Positions 43,943-62,888 of a stretch of DNA of 64,000 nucleotides are shown piece after piece. The translations under genes and the position numbers were made by a program. This DNA comes from an uncultured delta proteobacterium (GTDB taxonomy: Bacteria; Myxococcota_A; Polyangia; Fen-1088), in the NCBI GenBank assembly GCA_963796685.1, contig CAWCMR010000011.1, positions 224,001 through 288,000 on the forward strand, read 5' to 3'. The notes beneath the pieces were generated by a model, which saw nothing but the letters and a program-made list of their open reading frames with translations, was not told the DNA's origin and made no database searches. How positions within the stretch are numbered: position 1 is the first letter of the stretch; each line of letters opens with the position of its first letter.

Positions 43943-43969
43943 TGGAGCGGGCGCAAATGCTTTGAACCC
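43943..43969 (+). repeat. tmRNA-3'-like attachment site A (degenerate)
   Basis: TGGAGCGGGCGCAAATGCTTT-GAACCC aligns with the sites at 57578 and 59442 with one base missing. Confidence 0.65.
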
Positions 43970-44141
43970 GCCTCCAGCCGGCCTCGGGCAGTCGGAGGAC
44001 TGAGAACCATCTTCGCCCCCAGCAACAGCGCGGCGGCGGCTTCGGTGTTGAGGACGTTCAAACCCGGATGACGTCTCATTGTGCGACAACGTGAACGTTG
44101 TCGATTTCGTCGGTCTTTCTTGGCTAGGGGAGTCGGACTCT

Positions 44142-44356
44142 TCAGCCCGGCGATTTGCTTCGGCGTAGCCACCGCTTGGGTGGCGGATAGACGAACCTGG
44201 CAATCGTCGCCAACACCCAGGAGAGGGCAGCCCACGAACACGAGCAGAATGTTGTGGAGCCTTCCGTTCTTCGCCTTCACAGCGGCGAGTGCAAGGAGAT
44301 CCCCGCGCCAGGAAACAGCCGATGCTGTAGACCCAATAGTTCTGCTGCTTCAACAT
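44142..44356 (-). CDS. Small membrane protein (frameshifted)
   Basis: NYWVYSIG..ILLVFVG..WVLATIARFVYPPPKRW across frames. Confidence 0.55.
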
Positions 44357-44847
44357 GTGTCGCGACTCCTCTCGTCAGTCAACAGGCCAAGCGTCTTCCC
44401 AGGAAGCGATCATTCTCGACACGATCATCGTCCTATGAGGAGGCTGTACCCCGTTGCCGATCGGGGATGCTCGCGGCCGAACGCACGACGAGCGGATCTG
44501 AAATCGCTGGTCGTGAACGGAACCATAAACGTGCCGGTCCCGATTGGGGTCGGGTCCGGAGCCGACCGAGGCGCGGGAATCCTGATTCGGGGATGCGCCG
44601 GTGATTGAGGCAATATCTCCAGCATATGCCGGTAATCGGTGATCCCGACGCCGGTCCTCCATCAACGCCGACCAGGGGTCGGCATTGATGGGAGGGTGAA
44701 CCGCTCGCGAGCGGCAAGCGGTCAGCTGTCCCGGCCAGGAGCGGTGTACACGTGACCCGGCTGATTAGGGGTCTGGAGAAGATCGGCATTCGGTCCGAAC
44801 GTCGGCGACTGGTTTTCGGCGTGAGGCTCAAGGGGCATGCTGTATTG

Positions 44848-45524
44848 GTGGCTTCCCACAGAGCGATTCGGACAAGAGTTCAACCGGTAGGAGCCGGGGA
44901 GACCTGCCGCCGGATTCTGGTTGCCCTCCCGAAGTGGTTCGGCATCCCAGCTTCAGTTGAGGATTACGTCGCCACCGCCAATCGGTCTCCAACTGTCATT
45001 GGTTCACTCGGAGATGCCGATGTGGGGCTTCTCACGCTCGTGAGACATAGCCACTACGCCGCCGAGATCTATGTGATGGCCGTGCTGCCGGAGGTGCATC
45101 GCCAGGGCATCGGGCGGGCGCTGCTCAGGCACGCCGAATCCATATTGGCTGCCGACGACGTGGAGTTTCTTCAGGTCAAGACTCTTCCTCGAGCAAGGCC
45201 GACGACGGGTACGACAAGACACGTGCCTTCTACCTCGCTTGCGGCTTCCGGGCACTAGAGGAGTTCCCAGACCTGTGGGGACCTGAGAACCCGGCTCTGC
45301 AGATGATCAAGGCGGTCCCTCCACCGGCAGGCGTCGATGGTGCCGAACCGACACGTGCTCAAATCGGCCGCCCCAAGACGGGTGAACTCGAACAACCAGT
45401 CCACGGGTTTAACGGTCGTGAGGCCAGCGGTTTAGGCGGCCTCGAACCAGTCCCGACTCGGCCCGTCGGGGGCCGAGCACGGCGGACGGATTCAGCGCAT
45501 CGATGGGACCATCGACGGTCATAG
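44848..45524 (+). CDS. GNAT N-acetyltransferase (frameshifted)
   Basis: LPKWFGIP, HRQGIGRALL, LQVKTL, TRAFY..GF..LEEF..NPALQMIK. 3' end uncertain. Confidence 0.82.
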
Positions 45525-45572
45525 GTCGTTTGAGCTCGGGCTAAATGCTGGACGAGCGCCGCAGATACGCTC

Positions 45573-46047
45573 TCAGACGGAACCTTCCCCCGCGTCCAAC
45601 GTATCGAGCAACACCCTCAGTGCCGAGAACGCCGCCTCCCCGAGTTCAACACGCAGACGCGTTCTCGATCGCCCGGGCTGCGGCGCGCTGGCGCGCCAGA
45701 TAATCGATCCCTCGGGGGGTCAAGGTTACCGACCTCTCCCTCTTGCTGGTCGTCGAATCGGCCACCGCGACGTAGCCGCCATCAAGAAGACTTGCAACGA
45801 CCTTGCTAGCACCCTGCCGAGTGATGCCGAGTTCGCGTCCGATGGCGGAGATGGTTGATCCCGCCTCACCCGAGCACACGCGCAACACACGACCGTCGGG
45901 AAACCTGCGCTCGCCGAACCCCGCTTCGGCCATGGCATGGTCGAGGCGAAGCTGATAGCCGAGCCAGGCCCGCCGGAGTGCCCCTCCCAGGCCGGGTGAT
46001 GCCGACGGACCGTTCGATGCGTCGGCGTCGGGTGCCACGAGAGACAT
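45573..46047 (-). CDS. MarR family regulator
   Basis: TISAIGRELGITRQGASKVVASL..GYV..RERSVTLTPRG; frameshift near the 3' end. Confidence 0.82.
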
Positions 46048-46118
46048 GTTAGCAAACTGTGAACTTAGTTGACAGTGTGTCCATGGCGCCCGATACTTCG
46101 AGTATGCGGCGGGAGGGG

Positions 46119-47677
46119 ATGCACGATTCACCGAAGATCAGCACGACGAGGCGCCACGGCCGCCGTCGTCTCGAGCGGCGTCGCTGTCATGGCGCTGGCA
46201 CTCAGCGCCTGTAGCGGCTCGCCCTCGGAACCGGTCGCCTCCTCCGAGCGGGTGACCGGCGGTCCGACGGGGCACTACGTGGTGCCGGCGGGGATCCACA
46301 AGATCAAGCACATCATCGTCATCGAGCAGGAGAACCGCTCCTTCGACAGCTACTTCGGCACCTATCCGGGCGCCGACGGGCATCCCGATGCGAGAACGGC
46401 GTGCCGACCGTCTGCGTGCCGGTGCCGACCGGAGGCTGCCAGGCGCCCTACCACGACACCGCCGATGTGAACGGCGGCGGTCCGCACAACGTGCGCGGCC
46501 GCCCGGATCGACGTCGACGGCGGCAAGATGGACGGCTTCGTCTACGCCGCCTCGGGGGTGAAGAAGGGGTGCGGGGCGAACGTCAACGACCCGGCCTGCT
46601 CGAACTCGGCGGCACCCGACGTCATGGGGTACCACACGGCGGCCGAGATCCCGAACTACTGGACCTACGCCAAGGACTTCGTGCTCGACGACCACATGTT
46701 CGAGCCGGTGAAGTCGTGGTCGCTCCCCGACCACCTCTACCTCGTCTCGGGCTGGTCGGCCAAGTGCTCGAGCCCGGCGCCGTCGAGCTGCAGCAACCAG
46801 ATCAAGGGTCCCTACACGCCGCTGCAGATGCAGGAGTACGTGGACCAGGCCATGGCGACCGGGACGGCCGACGGTCACCAACGCCTGGACCGACATCACC
46901 TGGCTGCTCTACAACAAGCACGTCCCCTGGGCCTACTACGTCCAGACCGGGGACCAGCCCGACTGCGAGAACGACGGAGCGGTCGCGTGCGCCCCGGTCG
47001 CCCAGAGCTATCAGACCCCCGGGATCTGGAACCCGCTCCCCCTCTTCGAGGACGTCCAGAAGGACCACCAGCTCCGCAACATCCAGCCGCTCGACAACTA
47101 CTTCACCGCCGCCAGGAAGGGAACGCTGCCCTCGGTCATGTGGATCGCACCCTCCCAGGCCGACAGCGAGCACCCTCCGGCGAGCGTCCACCAGGGGCAG
47201 GCCTACGTCACCGCGCTGATCAACGCCGCCATGAAGAGCCCCGACTGGGACTCGACGGCCATCTTCTTGCAGTGGGACGACTGGGGGGGCTTCTACGACA
47301 GCGCGGTGCCCGCCGGCGGTGGACCAGAACGGCTACGGCCTGCGGGTCCCGGCACTCGTCATCTCGCCCTATGCCAAGCGGGGCTACATCGACTCCCAGA
47401 CGCTCAGCAGCGACGCCTACCTCAAGTTCATCGAGGACGACTTCCTGGGCGGCTCCCGGCTCAACCCCAAGACCGACGGACGCCCGAACCCAGGGCCGAC
47501 GTCCGCGAGGACGAGAAGGTCCTCGGCAACATGCTGCAGGACTTCGATTTCAACCAGAGGCCCCGGGCACCGGTCCTGCTGGCGACCAACCCCGCGACGG
47601 ACTCCCCCACCATCCCGGCGTACTTCAGCGGAAAAGGGCCCTGCGTCGGCTGCACGGCGACGCCGCCGAGCACCTAA
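46119..47677 (+). CDS. Phospholipase C / phosphoesterase family lipoprotein (frameshifted)
   Basis: LSAC lipobox; KIKHIIVIEQENRSFDSYFG, DSEHP, WDDWGGFYD, GLRVPALVISPY. Confidence 0.9.
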
Positions 47678-47744
47678 GGGGCCCGGGGCGGTCCGATGGT
47701 TGCGCCCCGCCCGAGATCGGGCCCTCCGATGCGAGAGTGGCGTT

Positions 47745-48200
47745 ATGACTCCAGAGACGGAAGAAACGCCGAGCCAGGACTTTGACGTCTTGGTGATGCG
47801 CTTCGTTGGGATCGGCCACTTTGCAGTTGACTTCAATCTCTACGGAAGCGTCGGCAGGTACGCAACCCTCACCTTGAGACCAACCGACTTTCGGATACAG
47901 AAGACCAATCGTCACGGCATGCCCAAAGAAGGCAGTGCCGCCTTCCCAACGTTATGGACTTGGAGGTTGACGGAGATTCGCTCTGCACGGGTCTTCAAAA
48001 GTCCGTGGTGGATACGGATGGCCGGGATCAACGCAAGCTACCCGTCTGGAATGGTGTTGGACATGGGAGCTTCGGGTTGGAATCTACTGCTCTTCAGTCG
48101 GCAGTTGGACTCCCTGCTCCAAGCCTTCGGCGATCAAGGCGTGGGCATTGCAAAGAACCCAAGAACGCTCACACCGCTGGTATTTCGCCGCGAGATTTAG
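47745..48200 (+). CDS. Hypothetical protein
   Basis: Clean 151-aa ORF with lower GC than its neighbours; no recognised domain. Confidence 0.55.
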   Translation: MTPETEETPSQDFDVLVMRFVGIGHFAVDFNLYGSVGRYATLTLRPTDFRIQKTNRHGMPKEGSAAFPTLWTWRLTEIRSARVFKSPWWIRMAGINASYPSGMVLDMGASGWNLLLFSRQLDSLLQAFGDQGVGIAKNPRTLTPLVFRREI

Positions 48201-48525
48201 CTATCGCTGGTTTCTTCACGTCCTTTCTGATCGACTCCGAAGGTGCCTCTCGGGACTGCCACATATCAAAGCAAGCCAGAGTCACGCCGGTGGGGGTCAA
48301 CGGCATACTCCTTCGCGGAGCACCCCGGCGAAATGGGTCCGTGATTTCCCGGGAACGTCGCGGAACGCCCTCGATCTCGCAGCTCAGTTGCTCGTGATGT
48401 TCCCCGGGAACGCTGGGGACACGTTCGGGCAATGTCCCCCGTTTCCCCCCACCGTAGGTGGGGAACCCGGAGCGGGACAGAAGCGCAGGACGCCATGGAT
48501 CGCCTCTGCCAGTAGCGCTAGCCTT

Positions 48526-48849
48526 GTGACGGTGCTTGCCAGGGTTCTCACCTTTTACTCCGAGAGCGCAAAGATGCCGGACCTTGTCGAGTCATTGCGC
48601 TCCGAACTCCCGGCGGCATACTCCTCACTCCCGAGCTTTCGTGGGGCGCTTGTCTTGGAGAAGACGGGTGGTAACCACATCATCGCCCTGACGTTGTGGG
48701 AGAGCGAAGACGGATTGAACGACAGCGAGTCCACCGCCGACGCCTTCGCCGATCGAATCGGAGAGGAAATCGGGCACTCGGTGACGCGCAACGTCTACAA
48801 CGTCATTGGATCGATTGGCTTTGGTCCCGACACGAATACGGGTGAGTAG
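48526..48849 (+). CDS. Antibiotic biosynthesis monooxygenase-like protein
   Basis: LPSFRGALVL..IALTLWESED. Confidence 0.7.
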   Translation: MTVLARVLTFYSESAKMPDLVESLRSELPAAYSSLPSFRGALVLEKTGGNHIIALTLWESEDGLNDSESTADAFADRIGEEIGHSVTRNVYNVIGSIGFGPDTNTGE

Positions 48850-48928
48850 CTTGCAGCCACTGCCAAGCAGCTCGCCGAGCCTGTCAAGACAGTGGCCGAC
48901 ACGCCGGACGGGCTGCTCTAAGAGGTGA

Positions 48929-49339
48929 ATGATGCCGGTCATCGTCGTTACTCGGCTCCGACTGAAGGACTCAGCATTCTCGGAAGAGTTCTTCGCGAGC
49001 GCACTTGTGGTCGTCGAGCAGGCGAGCATCTCGGAGGGCAATCTCGCCGCCGATGTTCTCGCCGACGCCAATGACACGTATTGGACACGCACGGCCTGGC
49101 GAGGGCGTGATTCGATGAACGCCTTCGTAGGGGCGGAGCCCCACCTGGGGACGATGGGTCACATCGCAGAGTGGTGCGATGAGGCGACCTTCGTCGACTG
49201 GGACCAGGCAGGTTCGGAGCTACCTGATTGGGAGGCGGGTTATGAGCGCCTTGTCACCGAGGGCCAGGGAGCTAGCCTCACCCATCCCTCCGATGCTCAC
49301 ATGACCCGCGCTTTCCCGGCCCCAGTCGTGCCCTCGTAA
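48929..49339 (+). CDS. DUF3291-like protein
   Basis: GAGGTG RBS; YWTRTAW..SMNAFVGAEPHLGTM..WCDEATFVDW. Confidence 0.75.
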   Translation: MMPVIVVTRLRLKDSAFSEEFFASALVVVEQASISEGNLAADVLADANDTYWTRTAWRGRDSMNAFVGAEPHLGTMGHIAEWCDEATFVDWDQAGSELPDWEAGYERLVTEGQGASLTHPSDAHMTRAFPAPVVPS

Positions 49340-49393
49340 TCATGGCGCACTGAGGACGATGTTCGCCGAACCCCGACTCCAGGAGGAAACCCC

Positions 49394-49817
49394 ATGACCC
49401 CCGAGGACTTCCCCGTCGTGTTCGCCGAAGGTTGGGCTCTGGACAAACCCGGACCGTTCCTCGACTACTTCCGGCCCCTCATCCACGACAACGCCACGTT
49501 CGTTCAGCCGATGTTTCCTGACGCTCACGGGCCAGCTGAGGTGGAACACATGTTTCGCAAACTGTTCTCGCTCTTTCCCGATCTCCCGCGCCGAAACTCG
49601 GCGCTTTGCGGTTCATGGGGATACCGTGTTCATCGAATCGGAGTGCACCAACAACGTACGAAAGAGAGCCATTCGGTTCACGGTACGCGATCGGTTCGTA
49701 ATTAGCGATGGCAAACTCTTGGAACGCCAGTCTTACTCCGATCCGTTGCCAGTCATCGTTTCTGTTCTCCGACGCCCGACAATGTGGCGTGGTGCCCTTC
49801 GCAGCCGGACGCTCTGA
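49394..49817 (+). CDS. SnoaL-like / NTF2 family protein (frameshifted)
   Basis: AGGAGG RBS; FAEGW, HDNATFVQP, DRFVISDG..ERQSYSDP. Confidence 0.78.
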
Positions 49818-50349
49818 AGCGGCACATATTCGGTGCGGGCTCCCGTGCGCCATTCCGGTTCCGACCGGCGCCTTGCACCAGGCAGGTCCGACCGGGTGAG
49901 CGTACAATGAACCCCGGTGGGCCTTCTACGATCGGCGGCAAGTGAAACTGAGTCCTGGAAGACAACCATCGCCAAGGACATCGGTTTCGTAGCCCTGATC
50001 TCTTGGCCTCTGGCCTTGACATGGGGCTTCCCATTTGAATCTGGACCTGGCGTACTGGTGTGGTTGTCGGCGCTGTCGCTGAGGTTTTGTGGCTAGCAGT
50101 CCTTGCTGTCGTTTACAGCTGGCACCACGGACGCCATTCCGCTCATCAATAACTGGTTCTACGCGAGCCTCGACAACGTCGAGTGCGGAGCGCAGATTCG
50201 GGACTCCCGTGCGCCATTCCGGGGCCGTCCGGCACCGGAACCAGGATGATCCCGGACACCATCAGGGCCGTAGGCTGCGCCGTCAACACGGTGATGCCAC
50301 GGCGATCCTCACATCGGCACATCGCCTGGCCAAGTAGTTGACTGGTGGC

Positions 50350-51017
50350 GTGCCCAGGGTCATCGGAGTGGTACTTGGCGGGTTGTTGGCCACGCTACTT
50401 CTGGCAGCCTGTGGTGCTCCAAGTTCAACCGCTGGCATTGCCACCACCTCGCCATCCACCACCTTGCAACCCACAACGTCGTACACAACCACGACCGTGA
50501 CCACCGCGTCGGCGAACCCTACGCTCACCTGCGATTCGCCTTCCAGTCGGGCGATCTACGACGGCAACGGTCTGCGTTTCGACTACCCGGCTTGCTGGAC
50601 GCCGACCCACAACGACGAGGTGTCGACGTTCTCGACCTCGCTCATCGACCTGAGCAACGAAGCGATGCACGATCCCTGCACGACCACAGGGTCCTCAACC
50701 GCCTGCGGCTGGCCGCTGACCAAGCTCGCTGCCGACGGGGTGTTGGTTCGCTGGAGTTCAAACGGCGGACCAGGATGGAGCCTCCAACAGCACCCGGCAC
50801 GTCGCTGACCGTCGGTGGCCTGCCTGCTCGTGAACAGGTCAGCCAGCCGGGGACTGCGGCTCGATCGGTGCCGACGAGACAATCGCAGTCGAGGCGGCTC
50901 GTACCGTTCCGTGACAACTACTACGCCATGACGGCCTGTCTGCGTGGACCCGACCTAACCCAAGCAGCCTCGCTGGTGCAGCAGATGCTGACGTCGACAA
51001 CCTTTACCTACCCGTAG
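50350..51017 (+). CDS. Lipoprotein (frameshifted)
   Basis: LLLAAC lipobox, Thr-rich linker, LRFDYPACW, ACLRGP..MLTSTTF. Confidence 0.7.
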
Positions 51018-51175
51018 CCGGTTAGCGCCAGTGGAGAAACGGGTACTCGGGAACCGTGCGCCATGCCGGCTCGGACCCGGCGCCGCCTGCACGCTGATCC
51101 CGACCTACGTTGCGCGCCTGTACCGGTGCAATCCCGAATGGTCATGGGTGCTCATGGGGTACAGAATGATGTCCA

Positions 51176-51664
51176 GTGGCGCGGGAGGAAGCTAACCCGG
51201 GCCGTCAGCGGAACGCCGAGATGCTCTCGACCGAGGACATCGAGCAGCTTCACGCAAGGGTGAATCCCCCTAGGCCCGAACCCAAATCGGTTGTCAACTC
51301 GGTCTTCCAGATGGGAATGGCCATCGGAGGGATTTTGCGGCCCTTACGGGACAGGCCAACCAGAACACCCGGCGAGGAAGCCAACGCTCAACAGGCGCTG
51401 CGCTTACCCGGCATCGCACACCTAGTGCTGCTAACAGCCGGTCTCCTTGGCGGCATTCTCTGGCACATCTTCTCGGGCGGGGAGTTGGCGATCGACCTCG
51501 CCGCTGGGGTGGGGTTCAGCATGGTCGGGGCACTGACGCTCATGATGTTGGGCCTCGTCATGGGCGCCTTTGTAAAGGTGATGGCGAGCATGATGCGGAC
51601 GGAGCGGCCAACCGATACGCCTGCTGGTGCTTACTCGTCGGGCTCAACGGCAAGGGCTACTTGA
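51176..51664 (+). CDS. Hypothetical membrane protein
   Basis: Two to three TM segments. Confidence 0.5.
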   Translation: MAREEANPGRQRNAEMLSTEDIEQLHARVNPPRPEPKSVVNSVFQMGMAIGGILRPLRDRPTRTPGEEANAQQALRLPGIAHLVLLTAGLLGGILWHIFSGGELAIDLAAGVGFSMVGALTLMMLGLVMGAFVKVMASMMRTERPTDTPAGAYSSGSTARAT

Positions 51665-51691
51665 CCCCGGCGATACCCGTAACCTGGTGGC

Positions 51692-52351
51692 GTGACCGAC
51701 TGGGCTTCGGCGGCGACGGCAGGGGGAACGTTGGTCCTGGCGGTGGCAACCTTCGCCTCGGTTCGATCTGCCAATCGTGCGGGACGCAATGCCGAGCAGG
51801 CGCTCCAGGTTGGACTGCGTCCCGTACTTTCGCCTCCCGTCCTCACGAGACGGTCCAAAGATCCGGTGGGGAGACGACCACTGGGCCCCTTTGTCGAATG
51901 GCCGCGCCGTTCTCGAGGAAGAAGGCGGCGTCATCTACATGGCCATGTCCCTTCAAAACGTAGGGGCTGGTATCGCAGTCCTGCACGGTTGGAGGATTGA
52001 CGTTTCGGAAATCCTCAATCCGAACGCCTCTCTCGATGAGATGCAAAGCGCGGTACAAGTTCGTCCCGATCCAACCTCCTTCCGTCCGCAGACCCGCGAC
52101 CTGTATTCGCCCCCCGGCGAAGTCAGCTTCTGGCAGGCGGCCATCAGAACCCTCGACGACCCGGACCGGGCTTGCGTGGAAGCGGCAATGGGCGGGCACA
52201 CCCCCTGATCGTCGACTTGCTCTACGGCGACCATGAGGGTGGCCAGCGCACGATCAGCCGTTTCTCGATCACTCGGTATCCCGGTAACGACGATGAATGG
52301 TTTCCCACCGTCGTACGGCACTGGTACCTGGATCGAGACGACCCTCGGTAG
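51692..52351 (+). CDS. Hypothetical membrane-anchored protein (frameshifted)
   Basis: TLVLAVATF..RPVL, LQNVGAGIAVLHGW, DLLYGDHEGGQRTISRF across frames. Confidence 0.65.
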
Positions 52352-52858
52352 GAACCAAGCAGTCTGTCTGGACTAAGCCTTCTTGTGACGTCACCTCTTG
52401 GGAGCTACACAAACGACGCCCCGCTTGGGATGCCGTCGATACGCAGGCATGCCGAACTCACGGCGCTGGCGCATATTCTGTGCGGTCTAAACCGGTCGGG
52501 CACCCGCTCGACCTGTCCGGCGCCGGATCCCGACGGGGGCCGGGTCGACCTGTCAGTGATGACGGTGGCATGCTGTTCCCACCAGATGTGCTGCCGCCGT
52601 CTTCAACAGGGTACGGAAGCCAAGGCTTTCGTCCAATACTCACCGAGGAAAATTTCGGGGCGATCCGACCTGGTCTGTAAACGCAACATCTCCTCCTGAG
52701 CCGCCAGTGGGCGAGTGCGCTGGTGGATAGGTGTGAGCCATGGCGGCTCCGATCGGCGCCCGAGTCAGGTGATACAGACCTAAGGTTGGCGGGGCTGATC
52801 CCCGGGTTGAGGTTCGCTGCCCATTGCGACAGTCGCTAGCTTCTGTGAACCTTCTTCC

Positions 52859-53747: not shown

Positions 53748-54726
53748 CCTCCTTTGCCAAAACCAGTCCGGGCCCCCTCTGGCAGCATCAACCCGGACCT
53801 TGACGGGCAGTAGAGGCTTTCGTCCCTGACTTCGGATCGACTCCTAATGAGCCTGTGACCTACCCACACGTCCCAGCGACTCGGGCCAAGCGGCGCAGGG
53901 GCATGTGGGCCTATGTCGTCGACGCCCGGTCCCAGGGGCCTCCCGGCAAATCGAGTCGCCCGACATTGTGACCGGGTCCGACCGTTTGCGTTTCGGGGGT
54001 GGCAGGCGAGCACTTCAGCCGGGCGCTCGAACCATAACGGGCGAGCAGGCCGAGGCCTTCCCCCTGAGTCCGAAACGGGTGATGCGCTCCCTTAGGAACG
54101 GAGCCGCGCGAACCGGCTTGAGCATCCTGCTCCCGGGCGATCGCGAGATCGCTGTGGGATCATGGCGCGGGCGAAATGCCGCGCCCGGTGGATTGTCAAC
54201 GGAAGCGTGCAGCTAGGAGGTGATCTCACCTATGACCGCGGAGTCAGCTTCGGATCGTCAACAGCAGTGGGCACTGGTCGTGCGACCACGTCGGGATACC
54301 GGACCTCGCTAGCAATGAGGACGCTCGGGAAGCGCTGATCGGGGCACTCCAGGGCCAGCTTCAGGAGAATGGATGGCAGAGCCTCACACGGGGTACTGCT
54401 GAGCCGATTGTTGACGCTCTAATGGCGTTGGGGGCAAGCGGACATCAAGGCTACCCCTCGCTCCCTCCAGATGTGGCCTATCGACTCATCGACAAGGGAC
54501 TCTCGGTGGTTGACCCCGAGCACCTTGTCTTTGACATGATGTTTGAATACCCCCCAGAGGTTGTCGAGGCAGTTGAGCAAATGCTGGTCCGGGTTAGCCA
54601 ACATCCGCGCGCGAACAACCGCTCGGCGAATGATTCGACCTCACCGCAGCCTGGCTGTCCCTCTCGAAATTCACCGTCACCAGCCCGCTTCGCTCGGCTC
54701 TATCCGATCTCCCAAGGAGTGAAGAC

Positions 54727-55686
54727 ATGACGACGACGCTCCCTTCCCAAATGGCTGCGCTCCTCGCCCGGGAGGAAGACCAAGCTCCTGACCGCATGAG
54801 TGTTGAAGAACGCTCACGGCCGGAACCTCGGATCGGCGACGTCTTGATTCAGGTTGGCGCGGCGAGCTTTACTCCGACCGAGTTGCAGTGGCCGTCGACG
54901 TGGGTGGACCGCTCCGGCAGGGACCGTCGGCCGGTGATACCCGGTCACGAAGTTTCAGGGACCGTAGTCGGCCTCGGATATGGCACCACGGGATTTGGCG
55001 TCGGTGACGAAGTGTTTGGCCTGACCGACTGGTACCGAGACGGTTCCCTTGCTGAGTTCGTGGCAGTGGAGGCCAGGAACCTCGCCACCAAGCCCGATTC
55101 CTTATCCCACGTTGACGCAGCAGCGTTCCCTATGGCCGCGCTCACGGCGTGGCAGGCACTTTTTGTTCACGCCGACCTCAAAGCTGGACAGAAGGTGGTT
55201 ATCCACGGTGCGGGCGGGGGCGTGGGGGCATTGGCCGTGCAGCTCGCAGTCAGCGCGGGTGCCCGAGTGATCGGGACTGGCAGGGCCGAAGCGCGCGACC
55301 TGGTGCTGCACCTGGGGGCAGAGCAGTTTCTCGACCTTGCTCACGACGCGTTGGACGAAGTGAAAGGCGTGGACGTCGTGTTCGACCTAATCGGCGGAGA
55401 TGTCGTCCACCGCTCATGGCCAATGCTTCGACCCGGCGGCTCGATTGTCTCTATTGTCGAGGCACCCAATGCCGAGCGAGCCGACGTGAACAGCCTGCTC
55501 TTCGTCGTCGAACCGAACCGTAAACAACTGACAGAGCTGGCTCGACGAATCGACACCGAATCCCTCCGTCCAGTTGTGGGCAACGTCGGTACTCTGCACG
55601 ATGGACCTCGTCTTTGGGCGGAAAAAATCGCGGGTGGCATACCTGGCAAGGTCGTGCTCACTTCATCGAGCCCTGCCGTGGGGTAA
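54727..55686 (+). CDS. NADP-dependent MDR oxidoreductase
   Basis: AAGGAG RBS; IPGHEVSG, ALTAWQALF, IHGAGGGVG, GKVVL. Confidence 0.92.
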   Translation: MTTTLPSQMAALLAREEDQAPDRMSVEERSRPEPRIGDVLIQVGAASFTPTELQWPSTWVDRSGRDRRPVIPGHEVSGTVVGLGYGTTGFGVGDEVFGLTDWYRDGSLAEFVAVEARNLATKPDSLSHVDAAAFPMAALTAWQALFVHADLKAGQKVVIHGAGGGVGALAVQLAVSAGARVIGTGRAEARDLVLHLGAEQFLDLAHDALDEVKGVDVVFDLIGGDVVHRSWPMLRPGGSIVSIVEAPNAERADVNSLLFVVEPNRKQLTELARRIDTESLRPVVGNVGTLHDGPRLWAEKIAGGIPGKVVLTSSSPAVG

Positions 55687-55993
55687 AGGAGATGTTGGTG
55701 GTGGACGAGGAGCGCACACGAGTGCCAGGGCAGGTGGGCGGTTGCTGTGCGCTCCCCGTGTCCTCGGCTGCGTCCGACAAGTTGCACCGGAGTTGGGAAC
55801 CGGGCCGATTGGCGACCCGCGCAGTACGCGTCCGTGACACGATAGCGGATAGGTCAGATCGGAGATGCGTCCGTGACCTTGGGACTAACTCGGCCTTGGC
55901 AGACGGAGCACCCCGCCCGAGTCTGGGTCAACTCGGTCCCCCGAAACGCTAGGTACCATTCCCGAAGAGGCTGAGGGCAGCGGGAGGGCGGCG

Positions 55994-56430
55994 ATGGCGG
56001 TCGACGTGACAACCGAGATCATGATTGAACGACCAGTCGAGGTCGTGGCTTTGTATGCCGGTGACCCGTCCAAGGCACCTTCCTGGTACGAGAACATCAA
56101 GTCCATCGAGTGGAAGACCGACCCCCCTCTGAGGGTGGGATCAAAGGTGGCATTCGTCGCTCATTTCTTGGGCGGGAACTCAACTACACGTACGAAATAG
56201 TCGATCTTGTCCCCGCTAAGCGCCTCGTCATGCGTACCGCTGAGGGGCCATTCCCCATGGAGACCACCTACGCCTGGTCCGCCGTCGAGGGATCGACCCG
56301 AATGACGCTGCGAAACCGAGGAGAGCCGTCGGGATTCTCCAAGCTGTCTGCACCCATCATGGCTATGGCGATGAAGCGAGCCAACCGCAAGGATCTCGAC
56401 CACCTGCGGATTCTCCTCGAATCACAGTAG
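55994..56430 (+). CDS. SRPBCC family protein (frameshift at ~56178)
   Basis: [32 protein letters not shown]. Confidence 0.85.
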
Positions 56431-56552
56431 TCCCTCGGCTCATTTCGGGGCCATCCGCGCAACTTGCAAGGCCGGATGGATCGATTCCGCGGATAATCGG
56501 GAATATGCCTGTTGCCTGTTCCACGCCACCGGAGCCACCGTCGCGCAGACCG

Positions 56553-57059
56553 CTACGGTGTCGTGGAGCTGACCTGTAGCTCGGGCGATCGAGTCAGGGT
56601 CTGGAGAACGACGCAGTACCGTTCCGTCGTTTCGATGAGGGCATTGAGCTCATCCTCCGAGGCAGAACTCTTGAGGTCGAACGACAACCGGATCGAGGTA
56701 AACCCGACGGCGGCATTTCGATCGACCCCCAGCGTTCCACGGAAATCAAGATCGCCTTCCGCCCGGACGATGCCCTCGACTTCAAGACCCCGGTTCGTGG
56801 CGACGGACCGAAGTGTCACACCAGCACACGCCACCAACGCCTGAAGCAACATGTCTCCAGAGCAGGCGAAGCTGCCATCGCCCCCAGTCGCCGGGTGAAG
56901 GCCGGCCTCAACCATTGCTCGACCGGTCGCCACGGAGCAGGTCACTGCTTCGCTCCCGAGACGGCCCTCAGCCTGCAAGGTGATCATGGCGGTCACCGGG
57001 TCCTCTCGATACCGAGCCTTCAAGGGAGCCTGGACTTCCTTCAGATCCTCAGCTTTCAT
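56553..57059 (-). CDS. OsmC family protein
   Basis: AGGAGG RBS; AGLHPATGG, LVACAGVT, TERYCVVLQTL. Confidence 0.92.
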   Translation of the reverse strand: MKAEDLKEVQAPLKARYREDPVTAMITLQAEGRLGSEAVTCSVATGRAMVEAGLHPATGGDGSFACSGDMLLQALVACAGVTLRSVATNRGLEVEGIVRAEGDLDFRGTLGVDRNAAVGFTSIRLSFDLKSSASEDELNALIETTERYCVVLQTLTRSPELQVSSTTP

Positions 57060-57248
57060 GTGAGCCTCCTGGACTCCCCCGGCCTTTCCTTGACCCGGTG
57101 GGGGTGACCGGAATGTGTAGTTCTCCGTCGGGTCCAGTGCAACGGTGAGAGTCCGGCCAGGTAGCGCATACTGGGGGGGGGTATATCTAGTGATCCCGGG
57201 CGCATGATGTATCGCCGTGGTTGGGCGGAACGTGCCGTTCGCAGCGCG

Positions 57249-57586
57249 TGTGGAGGCTGTAGAACCGAAGTCGGCGATGCCAATGGGAATTGGAAGGGGG
57301 GCGAACGCGACACAAGGCCGGCTCCGTGATGGTGCGAGTCCCCGGGCGCCCGCGGGCCGGAAAGAGCCCTTACGTATTCGAACACATCCTGGTGGCGGAA
57401 GGACTGCTCCGGACGCATCTCGTGGAGGGCCTACCGGAGATCCTCGAGCTGTGGACGCGTCCACAGCCCTCAGGCATCCGAGTGAGCGACGCCGTAACGT
57501 GGGCGCGGTCGATCTACGACCGTTACGTGGATGTCGGTGCACCTCCAACTGTGCTCACGGTCTCCCCTGAGCATCCTTGGGGCTAA
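57249..57586 (+). pseudogene. HNH endonuclease remnant, copy A (5' truncated, active-site segment deleted)
   Basis: Highly similar to 59745-60116; YVFEHILVAE present; the ETVHHINAIRD segment is absent; ends PEHPWG*. Confidence 0.85.
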
Positions 57587-57605
57587 CGGGAATGCTTTCG
57601 AACCC
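57578..57605 (+). repeat. tmRNA-3'-like attachment site B
   Basis: TGGGGCTAACGGGAAT-GCTTT-CGAACCC versus tmRNA end TGGAGGTGGCGGGAAT-CGAACCC. Confidence 0.8.
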
Positions 57606-57847
57606 CGACGCCGCCCTCCTCATCCTCCTTGGTCTGGAGAAATAGCAAGGGCTGCCATCCGGGGCCGATGAAGTCGGGGATCCCGAGCGTGCCCGACCAG
57701 CGGTGGCTCATGCGTCCCTGGTCGAGCGGCCGGGTGACCTCGATCAGTTCTGAGGGGCTCGCCTGGGCTCACAAGGCCTCTGACCGGGATAGCTGGCGGT
57801 TGGTCAGGAATCACCACCGGAGGTCCCGGCGAGCCAAACTGAAGCCC

Positions 57848-59185
57848 GTGGATCGACCCGAGACCCGGTACGCCGCGGTTGATGACGCTGACATCGCATA
57901 CCAGGCCACCGGTGACGGTCCTCTCGACTTGCTGTTCTGCTACGGCTTCGGCAGCGCCATCGACCTTGGCTGGGACGAGGCCACCACGTACCCCGAGTTC
58001 TATCGCCGCCTGGCCTCGTTCAGCCGACTCATCCTCTTCGATCGGCGAGGAACGGGAGCCTCCGACCCCATTTCCGCCGGCGTCTTCCCCACCTGGGAGT
58101 CGTGGGCCGAGGATGCCGGCGCTGTCCTCGACGCCGTCGACGCCGAGCGGGCGGTTCTTTTCGGCGCCCTCGACGCCGGGGCGCTGGCAGTCCTCTACGC
58201 CGCCATGCACCCCGAGCGGGTGCAAGCCTTGATCCTGCTCAACAGCAGCGCCCGATTCTGCCGAGACGAGGACTACCCCATCGGCGTAGCACCCGAGGCG
58301 CTCGAGACATTGATTGGCATTGTGGAGCAGGCGTGGGGAACCCGCCAGCTCGTCACTGCCGTCAATCCAGCCATGGCCGACGATGATGCCTTCCTGGAGG
58401 CCGTAGCTCGTGTCATGCGGGCGGCGGCGACCCCGCGTCGAGCGGCGACCCAGTTTCGCTACCTCTTGAGCAACGTCGACGTCCGTCCGGCACTCGACCT
58501 GGTGCAGGTGCCAACCCTCGTCCTAAGCGTGGCAGAGAGTGTCTTCGTGCCCGTCGAGCAGGGGCGCTACTTGGCCGAGCACATTGTCGGTGCCCGATTC
58601 GTCGAGCTTCCTGGGGCTGAGGTCGGCCTCTCTCCTCCGCTGCTTGGTATCGTCGACGAGATCGAGGAGTTCGTCACGGGCGAGCGTGGCACGGCCGATG
58701 TCGACCGAGTCCTGGCCACGGTGCTGTTCACCGACATCGTCCGGTCGACTGAACGAGCCGCCCAGTTGGGTGACCGGCGCTGGCGATCGCTACTTGATGC
58801 CCACGATCGCGCCGTGCGGGAGCAGTTCCGACGCTTCCGGGGTCGGGAGGTGAAGACCACCGGGGACGGTTTCCTGGCGTCATTTGACGGGCCGGCACGC
58901 TCTATCCGCTGCGCCCAGGCCATCGTCGAAGCCACCCGCTCGCTCGGCGTCGATGTCCGGCTCGGCCTGCACACAGGGGAGTGCGAGGCTCGCGGCGACG
59001 ATCTCGGAGGGCTCGCCGTCCATATCGCGGCGCGCGCGGGCGCGTTGGCCGACCCGGGTCAGGTCCTCGTATCGGGTACCGTCAAGGACCTGGTCGTGGG
59101 ATCGGGCATCGAGTTCAACGACCGCGGCGAGGAGGAGCTGAAGGGCGTACCTGGGTCGTGGAGGTTGTTCGCCGTGAGACAGTGA
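57848..59185 (+). CDS. Alpha/beta hydrolase-adenylate cyclase fusion (LipJ/Rv1900c-like)
   Basis: PETRYA, FDRRGTGASD; cyclase motifs VLFTDIVRST, TGDGFLA, GLHTGE, AVHIAAR, LKGVPG. Confidence 0.92.
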   Translation: MDRPETRYAAVDDADIAYQATGDGPLDLLFCYGFGSAIDLGWDEATTYPEFYRRLASFSRLILFDRRGTGASDPISAGVFPTWESWAEDAGAVLDAVDAERAVLFGALDAGALAVLYAAMHPERVQALILLNSSARFCRDEDYPIGVAPEALETLIGIVEQAWGTRQLVTAVNPAMADDDAFLEAVARVMRAAATPRRAATQFRYLLSNVDVRPALDLVQVPTLVLSVAESVFVPVEQGRYLAEHIVGARFVELPGAEVGLSPPLLGIVDEIEEFVTGERGTADVDRVLATVLFTDIVRSTERAAQLGDRRWRSLLDAHDRAVREQFRRFRGREVKTTGDGFLASFDGPARSIRCAQAIVEATRSLGVDVRLGLHTGECEARGDDLGGLAVHIAARAGALADPGQVLVSGTVKDLVVGSGIEFNDRGEEELKGVPGSWRLFAVRQ

Positions 59186-59441
59186 CCGACTGGATATCCG
59201 CGGTGACATCCAAGTAGGCGGGCATCCTGTACGTGCCGGTCCCAGTCGGACCTTGCCTGCTGGCCGGCACAACCGTCGGGTAGCGCATACTCGGGGATCC
59301 CGGTGGGGTCGCGGATCTTCAGGTCGCGAGCAAGATCACCGGTTTGTAACCGAGTCAGCGTCCGGTCCACCTCCCCGGTATGCCATCACGAAGATTTTGC
59401 GTCGCAGGGATTCGAAAGAGCGCGGTTACCTCTGGGACGCG

Positions 59442-59469
59442 TGGTACTAGCGAGAATGCTTTCGAACCC
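59442..59469 (+). repeat. tmRNA-3'-like attachment site C
   Basis: TGGTACTAGCGAGAATGCTTTCGAACCC shares GAATGCTTTCGAACCCC exactly with site B. Confidence 0.8.
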
Positions 59470-59615: not shown

Positions 59616-60116
59616 ATGCGTGAGAGGCAGTGCAAGGAATGCGAGAGGATCTTCCAGCCATCCAGTAGGCATCTCCGGTGTCCTGCCTGCAGGGCCAAGG
59701 ATCTGTGTGCTTGTGGGAAGGCAAAGCAGACAGAATCAGAGACATGTGCAGGCTGTAGAACCGAAGTCGGCGATGCCAACGGGAATTGGAAGGGGGAGAG
59801 AAGGCGACACAAGGCCGGCTCCGTGATGGTGCGAGTCCCCGGCAACCCGCGGGCGGGAAGGAGCCCTTACGTATTCGAACACATCCTGGTGGCGGAAGGG
59901 TTGCTCCGGAGGCATCTCGTGGAGGGCGAAACGGTCCATCACATCAACGCCATCCGAGACGAACCCGTCCTGAGAAGGTCGAACTCTGAACGCGGCCACA
60001 GCTCTCAGGTATCCGCGTGAGCGACGCTGCAAATTTGGACGCGGTCGACCTACGACCGGTACGTGGATGTCGGTGCACCTCCAACGGTGCTCACGGTCTC
60101 CCCTGAGCATCCTTGG
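59616..60116 (+). pseudogene. Zn-finger + HNH endonuclease, copy B (frameshift/stop after the HNH motif)
   Basis: CKEC, CPAC, CACG, CAGC; NGNWKG; YVFEHILVAE..ETVHHINAIRD; the Trp codon of copy A is TGA here. Confidence 0.88.
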
Positions 60117-60424
60117 AGCAGGTTCAACGTTTCTTGAACCCTCTTTCCGATCCTGACACAAGGCTGGATCTCGAACGCCTTCACAGAGTCTTCGCAGGTC
60201 ACGGGTCATCTTGGCTCGACAGTGGCCCTCGTCTACCGACCCCGAGGCAGCGGCAGGTTCACCTCAGCGAGGGGGATCGCGGCAGGCTTGTGGCTGCCTA
60301 TCTGGCTGGCGACACCGTCAGGAACCTGGCTAACACTTTCCAGCTCCATCGTGGAACGGTAAGCGAGATTCTGTCCCGCCATGGTGTGATTGATCGGCCG
60401 CATGGGCCTCGCCCAAAACGGTAG
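60113..60424 (+). CDS. Small helix-turn-helix protein starting inside site D
   Basis: LVAAYLAGDTVRNLANTFQLHRGTVSEILSRHGV; N-terminus EQVQRFLNP is encoded by the site. Confidence 0.8.
   Translation: MEQVQRFLNPLSDPDTRLDLERLHRVFAGHGSSWLDSGPRLPTPRQRQVHLSEGDRGRLVAAYLAGDTVRNLANTFQLHRGTVSEILSRHGVIDRPHGPRPKR
60114..60141 (+). repeat. tmRNA-3'-like attachment site D
   Basis: TGGAG then GAACCC at the same N19 spacing; HNH-repeat similarity ends at this TGG. Internal bases are more divergent than in B and C. Confidence 0.7.
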
Positions 60425-60532
60425 CCGGGGGTTAGATCGAACGTCGCTACGGTGTCAGTGGCTGAGATCGTCAAGCGGTGAAGGCCTCTAGTCACTGTTC
60501 TCTCCACCGCTTGCAAAAGCCGATTCCCTGAC

Positions 60533-60850
60533 TCAGTTGCCAGGAAGTGCGCCAGGTTCGGCGCCGCCGAAGACAGCTGCAATCCGGTCAAGGTGACGCG
60601 CCCAGAGTTGGTGATGGAAGGCGGCATCCTCCGCGCTCAGGCCGGAGAACTGGACCCTCACAGTTGTGCTGTCACCCGTCGGGATGAGGGTGATCTCAAT
60701 GAGTGCAGGTGTCGTCGTCTCGTTGTCGGTTCCGTGACGGTCCCATTCCATGACCAGGCGGTGCGGGCGATCGACTTCGATGTAGCGGCCAGTGATCGCA
60801 GTCCCGCCAAGGTCAAGGTGGAACATGTTCCCCGGCCGAGGAGTCGTCAT
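60533..60850 (-). CDS. SRPBCC/AHSA1-like protein (N-terminally short)
   Basis: GRYIEVDRPHRLVMEW, W..HLDRI; ATGA overlap with the SDR gene. Confidence 0.72.
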   Translation of the reverse strand: MTTPRPGNMFHLDLGGTAITGRYIEVDRPHRLVMEWDRHGTDNETTTPALIEITLIPTGDSTTVRVQFSGLSAEDAAFHHQLWARHLDRIAAVFGGAEPGALPGN

Positions 60851-61776
60851 GAAATGAAGCGGTGGATGGCCTCATTGGCGTGGTCCTGAAAGGACGGGTT
60901 GGCCAGATCGGGGAAGATATCCGCTTGGTCGACCAAGGGACCCGTCAATTTGTTGGCCGCGCTGGCGTAGAACACACCACTCAACAGAGTCGGATCGATG
61001 ACGCCGTCGACGAGTCGCTTCGAGCCCACTTCAAGGTCGTGGGAAATGCCGAGATGGGGCATGATGTGTTTGGCCGCAAAGCGCAGCGGTAGCGCTGCGC
61101 CGCCGGCGGCTTCGGTGCCCGTGGTGTTGCCGGGGCTCACAGTGATAAAGCGTAGGTCGGGGTATTGGCGCGCCAGGTGGGCCATCCATAAGGCCCCGAT
61201 GTACTTGACCTGACCGAAGGCGAGATTCCGATCAAATTTTCTGTCAGCGAAGTAGCTGCCGTCGATGACGGTAGTGAGTTCGTCGGTAGAGGTTGAAGCA
61301 AAGGTGGGCCGTTTGAACCCCAACTTCGGTATTCCCCTGGCTGCTTCACTCGCGGCGAACACCGCTACCTCGCGAAGTCGGTTCTGGGTCAGGAGCCCTT
61401 CGAGGAGAACGGCGTGACCGAGAGCGTTCGTTGCGAACAGTTTGGTAGTCCCGTCAGCGGTCAATTCCATCAAGGTCTTGCTGCCGATTACACCAGCGTT
61501 CATGACCAGGGCGTCGAGGGTTCCGTCGATGGCCGCTAGGCCGGCGCGGACCGAACCAAGATCGGCGACGTCCATCAGAATGATGTCGAAGATGTGTCGG
61601 CCGGTCATGGCTTCGAGATCGGCCTTTGCCATTGTCGCTCGATTCTTGTTCCGGCACGCCAGATAGATGCGGCCCATCTCAGGACGTAACGCCAGTTGCC
61701 GGGCCACATCCTTGCCGATCCCGACGTTGGCGCCCGTGATCAGTACCGTCTTTCCTGGGCCGTTGAGGTCAGTCAT
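60847..61776 (-). CDS. SDR family oxidoreductase
   Basis: VLITGANVGIG, LACRN, VMNAG, VSPG. Confidence 0.9.
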   Translation of the reverse strand: MTDLNGPGKTVLITGANVGIGKDVARQLALRPEMGRIYLACRNKNRATMAKADLEAMTGRHIFDIILMDVADLGSVRAGLAAIDGTLDALVMNAGVIGSKTLMELTADGTTKLFATNALGHAVLLEGLLTQNRLREVAVFAASEAARGIPKLGFKRPTFASTSTDELTTVIDGSYFADRKFDRNLAFGQVKYIGALWMAHLARQYPDLRFITVSPGNTTGTEAAGGAALPLRFAAKHIMPHLGISHDLEVGSKRLVDGVIDPTLLSGVFYASAANKLTGPLVDQADIFPDLANPSFQDHANEAIHRFIS

Positions 61777-61803
61777 ACGTTGCTCTATCCCCTCGCTGCA
61801 AAT

Positions 61804-61853
61804 TGGGTGGCGCAACCCATTCTGACCTTTCGACACTGGGTTGTCAAACCCAG
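61804..61853. promoter_or_regulatory. Paired TetR operators TGGGT-N6-ACCCA
   Basis: Two palindromes (61804-61819 and 61837-61852) between the divergent SDR and TetR genes. Confidence 0.7.
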
Positions 61854-61874
61854 AATTTCAGCTAACATCGGAGC

Positions 61875-62480
61875 ATGGTCAACGAGACGAGTGACCGGCC
61901 GAGGCTCACCCCCAAGGGAGCACGCACCCGGGCACGAATAGTGGAGGAGGCCGCCGCCCTTATCCATGAGCGCGGGGTTGCGGCCACCACCTTGGAAGAC
62001 GTCAGGGTGGCGGCGGAAGTCAGTGGCTCTCAGATGTCCCACTACTTCCCCGGCAAGAACGATCTCGTGCAGGCGGTCATCGACTACCACGCCGACGCCA
62101 TCGTCAATCGCAATCGGCAGGCGCTCAGCAGAGCGAACGGCGTCGAAGCCTGGCGGAACATGGTGATCACGGCAGCGAAGCGCACCAAAGCAAAGGGGGG
62201 ATGCCAACTTGGCTCGCTCGTTAGCCAACTCGCCGAGAGTGACCCCGAGGCCCGAGCGCTCATCGGGGCAGGGTTCGCTGAGTGGGCAGCCGCTATCGGC
62301 GATGGACTCAGATCCCTTCATGCCGACGGCAAACTCCGGTCCGACATCGATCCGGACGACCTTGCCACTACTCTGCTCGCCGCGCTCGAAGGAGGGCTTC
62401 TACTCGGTCAGGTACTTCGGAGTTCCCGCCCGATCGAAACTGCGGTCGATACCCTCCTCGCCCTCGCCATTGGCAGATGA
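61875..62480 (+). CDS. TetR/AcrR regulator (NemR/LmrA-like C-terminus)
   Basis: TRARIVEEAA..TTLEDVR..HYFPGKNDLV; GGCQLG. Confidence 0.92.
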   Translation: MVNETSDRPRLTPKGARTRARIVEEAAALIHERGVAATTLEDVRVAAEVSGSQMSHYFPGKNDLVQAVIDYHADAIVNRNRQALSRANGVEAWRNMVITAAKRTKAKGGCQLGSLVSQLAESDPEARALIGAGFAEWAAAIGDGLRSLHADGKLRSDIDPDDLATTLLAALEGGLLLGQVLRSSRPIETAVDTLLALAIGR

Positions 62481-62538
62481 GGCCAAGCGGCGCAAACAGG
62501 TGTTCGCGATCGCCGAACTACACCAATGTAGTTACCCG

Positions 62539-62888
62539 TGGAGGTGGCGGGAATCGAACCCGCGTCCTTCGGCTTCTCATCGGGCCTTCTCCGAGCGCAG
62601 CCGGCAGCTAGAGTCTCGGGACCCCCGCCGCCGCCGGCGAATTCGAGGGTCCCCAACCGACTTTTGGTGTCCCCGGCGGCCAATCGGTGGAACCGCTCGG
62701 GTAAGCCCCGCTAGATGACGCCCGCTACCGGCCTGCAGGGCTGAGACCGGACGGACGGGCTACTTATTAAGCAGCCAGCGCGAGCTGAGGCTCGGCATTT
62801 GTTTTTTGTTCCGGCTCTTTAACGTGGCTCCGGAGACCACGGCTCGCTTCTCCCGAATTGACGACCAAAGTCGAAACCGATCACCCCC
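62539..62888 (-). ncRNA. ssrA: tmRNA; tag reading frame AEPQLALAA** (62767-62796); full CCA not encoded
   Basis: 5' GGGGGUG pairs with 3' CACCUCC-A including G3.U70; T-arm GGUUCGAUUCC; LAA-stop tag; immediately downstream of smpB. Confidence 0.97.

Follow-up and report, generated by a model that had tools for sequence, protein, structure and literature searches.

Probable attachment-site scars of large serine recombinases stacked at the 3′ end of an Acidimicrobiales-like tmRNA gene

The window analysed here is a 64,000-nucleotide (nt) stretch of contig CAWCMR010000011.1 (C11:224001-288000) in the 7.3 Mb assembly GCA_963796685.1, and its subject is the transfer-messenger RNA (tmRNA) gene, ssrA, with a series of short sites behind it that resemble its 3′ end. 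At the gathering threshold, the tmRNA is the only Rfam match in the window. Its 3′ end reads TGGAGGTGGCGGGAATCGAACCC on the plus strand from 62539, opening with TGGAGG, and four look-alikes at 60114, 59442, 57578 and 43943 lie on the same strand at distances of 2425, 3097, 4961 and 18596 nt from it. The neighbourhood on the smpB side is kept in relatives and conservation ends at the tmRNA 3′ end. In attachment-site (att) terms, the features at the centre of the argument are the following.

62538-62888 (ARAGORN) or 62536-62888 (Rfam, 150.4 bits), minus strand: tmRNA gene with the tag AEPQLALAA, whose 3′ end is the attB-type arm
63011..63437, minus strand: smpB, just upstream of the tmRNA gene, read in two frames (frameshift or assembly indel)
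60114..60141, plus strand: weak attP-type arm, TGGAGC and then CTTGAAC at letter 20, where the flank of HNH copy B meets the unit nearest the tmRNA
59442..59469, plus strand: attP-type arm of the GCTTT family, 39.2 bits, at the start of a 0.67 kb unit
57578..57605, plus strand: GCTTT-family attP-type arm (53.5 bits) with the flank of HNH copy A immediately before it
43943..43969, plus strand: degenerate attP-type arm 18.6 kb away from the tmRNA end, one base short and with its motif at letter 19
59279..59441, plus strand: conserved left-flank 'module', directly left of the 59442 arm
59616..60113, plus strand: HNH_3 copy B, of full length, broken by two or more frame changes; a hairpin and CACCTCCAA (60076-60084) lie in its terminal 40 nt
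57249..57577, plus strand: HNH_3 copy A, lacking its 5′ part and the HH..N core, with an internal deletion; hairpin and inverted repeat (57540-57548) kept

Counting from the T of TGG, a TTCGAAC-like motif stands at letter 15 in tmRNA genes (ATCGAAC in the window tmRNA). The motif is found at letter 20 in the window sites at 57578, 59442 and 60114, at island ends in two relatives (G361 and G369), in the GCTTT site of G361 and in unit U1 of G362, and at letter 19 at 43943. The initial annotation had described the sites as modified copies of the tmRNA end that differ from it in spacing; the strings it quoted do stand at their coordinates, all on one strand, and the spacing difference holds (letter 20, or 19 at 43943, against letter 15). 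What looked like modification of a copy reads in these letters as a systematic arm geometry, not as decay. For large serine recombinases (LSRs), the sections of Rutherford et al. (2013, PMC3783163) drawn on here place the recognised motif 5 bp further from the crossover in an attP-type than in an attB-type arm, with inverted motif copies in both attP arms, as worked out on a Listeria phage integrase and synthetic sites. The same 5-bp shift is present between the window sites and the tmRNA (20 versus 15), and recombinase-side arms in relatives carry TTCGAACTC at the mirrored place. Since the base preceding TGG varies with the flank and those behind it with the arm, the crossover must, as judged from the junctions, lie within TGG; judged by symmetry, the two TTCGAA motifs would centre on letters 2-4.

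In order to see how far these sites stand out, we scored 14.6 million positions of the assembly with a weight matrix built from ten sites, all from relatives and with the window sites left out. The two highest scores fall at 57577 (53.5 bits) and 59441 (39.2 bits), and the next position reaches 15.1. With one matrix column deleted, 43943 scores 21.7 compared to 13.7 for the best unrelated site. A matrix scan, which the initial annotation had suggested building from the four sites themselves, here places two sites at the top of the assembly and a third once a column is deleted, and 60114 fails it. Of the four boundaries originally proposed, 57578, 59442 and 43943 have matrix support, and 60114 is a weak look-alike, with two of the left flanks derived from a duplicated HNH pseudogene. 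The 16-mer GAATGCTTTCGAACCC has two exact copies in the 7.3 Mb assembly, both in the window, and its reversed control has none.

The same site family is present in relatives. The 17-mer GGAATGCTTTCGAACCC occurs exactly in 6 of 57 nearest-family genomes (reversed control 0/57), and the full context (G/T)TGGAGCTA(G/A)CGGGAATGCTTTCGAACCCC in 14 of 26 metagenome-contig matches. To the left of these 14 metagenome sites lie the HNH flank (4), a fifth HNH-like flank (L224), the module (2), TTCATGAACAC repeats (5) or other sequence (2), the module flank reading ...GGGATTCGAAAGA..TTACCTCTGGGA.C; to the right of the sites a conserved leader is followed by varied cargo. Both the HNH flank and the TTCATGAACAC repeats are found elsewhere directly behind real tmRNA genes. 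A site lies downstream of the tmRNA gene on the same relative strand in the window, in G176 (1.1 kb), G362 (0.7 kb), G361 (20.5 kb) and G360 (41.6 kb), and at locus L212 (4.7 kb). A repeated GTGTTCATGAAA motif, which may be the native flank arm of the attachment site, stands directly behind the tmRNA gene in several relatives and directly left of GCTTT sites elsewhere (L087, L088, L055, L141, L139, L207, L213 and L214).

Homology in relatives starts or stops exactly at the site TGG. The HNH flank ...CCCCTGAGCATCCT runs into the real tmRNA exactly at TGG in G176 and G362, demonstrating that the TGG of a site truly corresponds to the end of the tmRNA gene, and the same flank is followed by a real tmRNA in 17 loci. 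In the window, in L181, L202/L204/L220 and L217, and likewise in G360, that flank is followed instead by a site and its cargo. Window positions 59441-60118 match the tmRNA-abutting unit of G362 (87% identity, 682 nt), the match running from the site's opening letter up to the tmRNA, and the module left of 59442 matches a G362 segment 2.35 kb further out, which is followed there by a different arm, GTGGAGGTGGTGCC...TACGAAC. Positions 57578-57681 and the cyclase gene match G364. The comparison of ssrA flanks therefore yields breakpoints at the TGG, in keeping with the original proposal that attP-type half-sites are joined there to the tmRNA end. No synteny beyond the array was found with G176 or G362, so its outer limit cannot be set; 43943 is its outermost recognisable boundary. 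In metagenome run X8, one contig passes from 60095 to 62534 by way of 21 other letters (a weak match, side 25) and probably comes from a relative with HNH next to the tmRNA; the best metagenome run contained 0.16 of the sampled words.

Intact islands of the same geometry provide a candidate for the enzyme. In G361, a 582-codon frame with a Recombinase domain ends against the tmRNA 3′ end, and its 504-aa protein carries Resolvase, Recombinase and Zn_ribbon_recom domains. Proteins 96-98% identical to it abut the tmRNA in G366 and G369, and G116 has a relative at 43% in the same position; an LSR with these three domains is thus found at an island end in G361, G366 and G369 and is absent from the window. 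Homologues with 48-68% identity abut tRNA-Ala, tRNA-Val and tRNA-Tyr genes, and more distant ones abut tRNA-Ser, tRNA-Arg and tRNA-Val genes. Overall, a match was obtained in 24 of the 57 genomes, and for 22 of 30 retrieved loci ARAGORN places a tRNA or tmRNA there. C-terminal LSR fragments abut the tmRNA in L053 and L063, and a 91%-identical fragment lies inside the G360 array. The protein end ...SEFEYE is encoded by GAGTTCGAATACGA, so that the last codons of the LSR gene are the recombinase-side arm. Homology between G361 and G369 begins exactly at TGGTGCTGCGTTGTCGCTATTCGAACTCC (TGGTGC...TTCGAAC), 15.7 and 19.1 kb from the tmRNA, and the DNA to its left is unrelated; TGGTGCTGCGTTGTCGCTATTCGAACTCC is the far end of the intact island. 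In G361 this island lies next to the tmRNA and an older site is found 4.8 kb beyond it, which fits the earlier suggestion that the newest unit is the one next to the tmRNA. The recombinase expected beside the motif was accordingly located in relatives, as LSR islands with letter-20 ends, and not in the window or in the part of C11 to which the window belongs. An LSR is most likely the responsible type, instead of the tyrosine integrase assumed as background in the initial annotation.

Any statement about this genome has to take into account that C11 is chimeric. Tetranucleotide usage changes at ~210-218 kb, 6-14 kb ahead of the window start, and the first ~200 kb of the contig share insertion sequences with the main contigs of the assembly. 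A second, unrelated tmRNA lies on C21 and a second, intact smpB on C25; the C21 tmRNA is matched in its 358-nt length, with a near-equal Rfam score, in tmRNA genes of the genomes of the assembly's genus, from which, in a megablast-level search, the window tmRNA is absent save for a 30-nt end match. The nearest relatives of the window SmpB are Acidimicrobiales genomes. On the strength of the two tmRNA and two smpB genes, the SmpB affinity, the tetranucleotide switch and the shared insertion sequences, the window lies in an Acidimicrobiales-like part of C11, the rest of that organism's DNA is outside the assembly, and every 'same genome' statement is limited to that extent. Near-identical clusters of several tyrosine recombinase genes occur on four main-genome contigs (C11:3.7-9.5 kb, C10, C12 and C25). 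The assembly of one relative, G368, contains two full-length tmRNA genes, on its contigs C3 and C4 (150 and 153 bits). Three genes of the window are split into two frames each (phosphoesterase, 46528-48200; SRPBCC, 55889-56430; smpB, 63011-63437), and contigs of other runs differ from the window by single-base indels at 60095, 60224, 60425, 61856 and elsewhere. The splits in these genes and in HNH copy B may be assembly indels or real decay.

A second gene family is tied to the same position. Window positions 57249-57583 and 59745-60119 are two copies of one 335-375 nt repeat (81% over 375 columns) that represents a broken HNH gene, and sites 57578 and 60114 follow copies A and B directly, the site TGG being a Trp codon near the end of the HNH gene. 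The window copies have no Pfam hit and are assigned by homology: an intact G176 homologue, 89% identical to copy B, matches HNH_3 (PF13392) at 35.7 bits against a cut-off of 24.8. A putative third remnant left of 59442 was rejected, the only match there being 18 nt (57160-57177 to 59279-59296; score 31 versus a shuffle maximum of 27) that belongs to the module. Of 301 genomes sampled from the order, 10 have an HNH homologue, and in eight of the ten it runs convergently into a tmRNA or tmRNA-like 3′ end (six by ARAGORN, two by reading the sequence); in G118 the gene lies 7.7 kb behind the tmRNA, and in G178 there is no tmRNA within 18 kb of it. In a class-wide sample, 18 of 401 genomes have a match, with all seven close homologues abutting tmRNA and 9 of the 11 distant ones beside tRNA-Glu(CTC). 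This distant branch (40-52% identity) stands convergently just behind tRNA-Gln/tRNA-Glu(CTC) pairs in those 9 of 11 loci (L190-L196, L198, L199), with an ordinary terminator hairpin in between and no acceptor-complementary repeat.

The HNH 3′ end also carries a sequence that mirrors the tmRNA: CACCTCCAA is an inverted copy of its acceptor end. All 17 HNH-abutted tmRNA genes (L144, L177, L129, L130, L132, L134, L135, L054, L073, L090, L119 and L183-L188) have the 8 nt with which they end copied exactly, in inverted orientation, 28-43 nt downstream, compared to 0 of 58 HNH-less loci. The copy sits inside the HNH 3′ coding end, around a hairpin (57540-57580 and 60076-60116 in the window). At four loci with variant acceptor ends (CAGCTCCA twice, CAGGTCCA and CATCTCCA) the inverted copy covaries and the encoded residues change. 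It may act as a terminator, in trailer pairing or as a nuclease site. Direct repeats of the tmRNA end upstream of HNH were significant only in L127 and L073 among ten HNH-tmRNA loci. We found no matching literature report of an HNH or homing gene beside a tmRNA gene, a search that did not cover supplements.

The DNA between the sites consists of the following units.

60142..62538, both strands: tmRNA-adjoining unit holding the next four open reading frames (ORFs); no recombinase; right end without a TTCGAAC arm
60113-60424, plus strand: ORF with a weak helix-turn-helix (HTH) match (E 0.01)
60533-60850, minus strand: AHSA1/SRPBCC
60847-61836, minus strand: SDR
61875-62480, plus strand: TetR
57629..59185, plus strand: alpha/beta-hydrolase and adenylate/guanylate-cyclase gene, the cargo of the 57578 unit
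43970..57248: older block with GNAT, MarR, split phosphoesterase, zinc alcohol dehydrogenase, split SRPBCC and OsmC genes; no recombinase found

This content agrees with the initial annotation, given that the HTH match is weak and HNH is assigned by homology, as does the stacking of units behind ssrA with no recombinase in the array. A homologue of the hydrolase-cyclase gene also lies behind a GCTTT arm in G364, and such arms have the module as their immediate left neighbour in the window, G362, G361 and two metagenome contigs. Right ends of the window units are unrelated to each other and lack a TTCGAAC arm, and their genes lie on both strands. The 57578 arm is followed by a conserved leader of ~150 nt with a 17-codon ORF (57592-57645), and a small ORF (59456-59623) begins inside the 59442 arm; the 5-nt 'insertion' of the sites creates an ATG nine bases past GGAG. 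Type-1 units encode MLSNPDDALLTLLELDK-like peptides with TAG, TAA or TGA as the stop at one aligned position, two other leader types have only MLSNP in common with them, and the ATG is lost or out of frame in the G176, G353 and G357 copies. Two further candidates were rejected: RNAalifold on 18 type-1 units gave only a T-arm-like hairpin (-15.4 and -6.2 kcal/mol for the two strands), and a coding frame on the tmRNA strand ending ...GVRKHSR* is open, with an upstream part that is unconserved and a frame that varies. In the older block, positions 53842-54020 are 78-87% identical to DNA immediately left of a GCTTT site in G353 (L174 18404-18131) and continue as ...GCGCTCGAACCATAAC, perhaps another decayed boundary, and a 36-nt direct repeat (GGGCTCCCGTGCGCCATTCCGG...) has four copies within 49837-52760 that are 69-100% alike.

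Taken together, we consider it probable (roughly 0.7) that the sites are hybrid att junctions left as scars when LSRs integrated repeatedly at the tmRNA 3′ end, with an HNH gene that targets the same end interleaved among them. They would be island-side (attP-type, P′) half-sites left in hybrid junctions by an LSR family whose zinc-ribbon motif, TTCGAAC, equals the T-loop sequence and would stand at a distance from the crossover that is 5 bp greater in the attP-type arm than in the tmRNA. Each insertion would put new DNA between the tmRNA and whatever lay behind it, pushing older junctions outward and so leaving the sites aligned on one strand behind ssrA. The HNH_3 gene would have been acquired at the tmRNA end at least twice and displaced twice by insertions, giving the two HNH-flank/site junctions. 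For the window's own junctions we infer LSR authorship and the following order of events: an HNH unit (module, site, HNH) would have stood at the tmRNA, as in G362; an island led by a GCTTT arm and carrying the cyclase would have inserted between the HNH flank and the tmRNA; a second module-site-HNH unit would have replaced the tmRNA-proximal part of the cyclase island; and a further unit (60114-62538) would then have inserted. The recombinase end would have been lost each time, with G361 following the same logic while its newest island is still complete. Having neither a recombinase nor a recombinase-side arm, the window units are most likely fixed remnants.

Several observations weigh against this history. 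No LSR is found in the window or in the Acidimicrobiales-like part of C11 (PF07508 hits only C9, and tblastn gave none), the rest of that genome lying outside the assembly. Likewise, a recombinase using a GCTTT-type arm was not found: the two intact islands read at both ends, in G361 and G369, have the same spacing and different inner letters, and the GCTTT 17-mer is absent from G366 and G369. Site 60114 scores -25.6 in the matrix, matching seven of nine motif letters and keeping only TGGAGC and CTTGAAC at the same offset. TGG is common to all sites; letters 3-4, to which symmetry points for the central dinucleotide, vary (GA, GG, GT or GA), the tmRNA having GA and the island end of G361/G369 having GT. 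In G353 (three copies in 8 kb, on a single strand) and G368 the copies do not lie near a tmRNA. With no TTCGAAC arm at their right ends, the window units cannot be shown, on their letters, to be whole islands. Finally, the sites seem better conserved than dead scars should be, which, together with the possible small ORF, suggests that they may have a function of their own.

A broader proposal, which we put forward tentatively and judge improbable when all its parts are taken jointly, is that two selfish elements, the HNH_3 homing-type gene and the LSR island family, are rivals for the final bases of the tmRNA gene. Hybrid sites are normally not accepted by serine recombinases; stacks could nevertheless grow if the arrival of HNH wiped out the recombinase-side arm of the previous island and restored a site usable by a new one. 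The island arm might in addition double as the translation start (GGAG-ATG) of the first island gene.

Among the alternatives, an array made by the HNH endonuclease is unlikely but has the most to recommend it. The nuclease would cut the tmRNA 3′ end and repair would copy HNH with its cargo, the tmRNA-like site serving as a short far-side homology arm in an intron-less form of homing. The close association of the family with t(m)RNA 3′ ends (8 of 10 genomes in one sample, 7 of 7 close homologues in another) fits such a mechanism, as does the finding of GCTTT sites both to the left of HNH units (window, G362, G176) and to the right of HNH flanks (window, L181, L202, L217). However, units with the same site often have no HNH gene (G364, L212, G353), the cleavage is a prediction and the window copies are broken, and the mechanism would explain neither why the spacing is fixed at 5 nt nor why the LSR end has a matching arm.

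We regard as very unlikely an active, integron-like cassette system in which each unit is mobile, opened by its site and moved by a recombinase in trans. The attI sites of integrons have linked leader ORFs, of which the GGAG, ATG and short ORF at the sites are reminiscent, and the same site precedes different cargos in different genomes. Against this, the array has no IntI-like gene, no attC-like element at its right ends, which are unrelated to each other, and no common gene orientation, so the integron likeness drawn originally does not extend to these features. Excision by an LSR needs the recombinase-side arm, and as the right ends lack it, the units are not excisable cassettes for a recombinase supplied in trans. 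The circular junctions that excision would produce, and contigs covering several parts of the array, were likewise absent from the contigs of four metagenome runs, which cannot show rare excised forms.

That the sites are remnants of tyrosine-integrase islands with decayed direct repeats is a reading to which we give very little credence, although ssrA is a classic target of such integrases (Nawrocki et al. 2025, PMC11915505, in the sections used here) and the assembly's other tmRNA, on C21, is adjoined by one. An identical 5-nt insertion shared by the window, 6 of 57 related genomes and 14 metagenome sites is not what independent decay would produce. Moreover, no array examined contains a PF00589 hit: Phage_integrase gives 51 hits in the assembly, none of them in the window, the nearest on C11 being at 9.5 kb, and none lies between a site or HNH and the tmRNA in G361, G360, G176, G362 or G118. 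Local duplication plus chance, with the sites as by-products of a tandem HNH duplication and an accidental likeness to tmRNA, has next to no probability: 57578 and 60114 do end a 335-375 nt repeat, and TGG-N19-GAACCC, seen three times in the window (0.74 expected; all within 57578-60141), reaches at least three in 4 of 100 shuffles, but the site family recurs in many other genomes with different flanks, the HNH flank joins the real tmRNA at the same TGG in relatives, and the reading is already contradicted by the 17-mer counts in relatives, the metagenome sites and a matrix ranking far above chance.

If scars of repeated LSR integration are the correct explanation, old integrations would be recognisable from the letters by a 5-bp motif offset relative to the target gene that persists after the recombinase is lost, and scars at tRNA and tmRNA genes could be mapped in practice by this mark. 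The zinc-ribbon motif of this LSR family coincides with the universal T-loop sequence, which may explain why close relatives of one enzyme target the tmRNA and several tRNA genes. The HNH gene residing at the same end, with an inverted repeat that covaries with the tmRNA, offers a lead of its own that can be tested.

The nearest published parallel is found in the Dehalococcoides ssrA islands, for which the sections of McMurdie et al. (2011, PMC3146451) drawn on here describe tandem islands, a serine recombinase and 15 islands without an integration module that are discussed there as cis-mobilisable or fixed. As in the window, they are stacked downstream of ssrA with copies of the ssrA 3′ end as boundaries, these copies adjoining a conserved motif that fails to align with ssrA, and the window array shares with such tandem islands the position downstream of ssrA, the single strand, the ssrA-end boundaries and presence/absence breakpoints at the repeats; intact att sites at both ends of each unit, as in an excisable island, are not found, since the right ends lack the TTCGAAC arm. 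In those same sections the repeat is a plain one of 20 bp with insertion in the T-loop, whereas here homology ends at the gene's final three letters and the arm is an imitation of the entire 3′ end with a displacement of 5 bp. Unlike those islands, the array also belongs to a different phylum and shares its site with an HNH gene. With this array, tandem ssrA islands would reach beyond Dehalococcoides into Acidimicrobiales: the type of island pile-up is known, the bacterial group is new. Relative to the LSR rule in the cited part of PMC3783163, the 5-bp offset is the same, read here from natural junctions only and with a central dinucleotide that is not fixed. Integron cassette arrays are likewise ordered, one-sided arrays beside a fixed site with a recombination site at each boundary, but they differ in that the present array has no IntI and no attC, mixed gene orientation and multi-gene units. 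Finally, the LAGLIDADG homing genes that the cited sections of Nawrocki et al. (2025, PMC11915505) place inside group I introns of the tmRNA T-loop are, like HNH here, selfish nucleases tied to a tmRNA gene; in contrast to them, HNH_3 is free-standing, lies outside the tmRNA gene and convergent with it, abuts the discriminator base and carries an acceptor-complementary inverted repeat.

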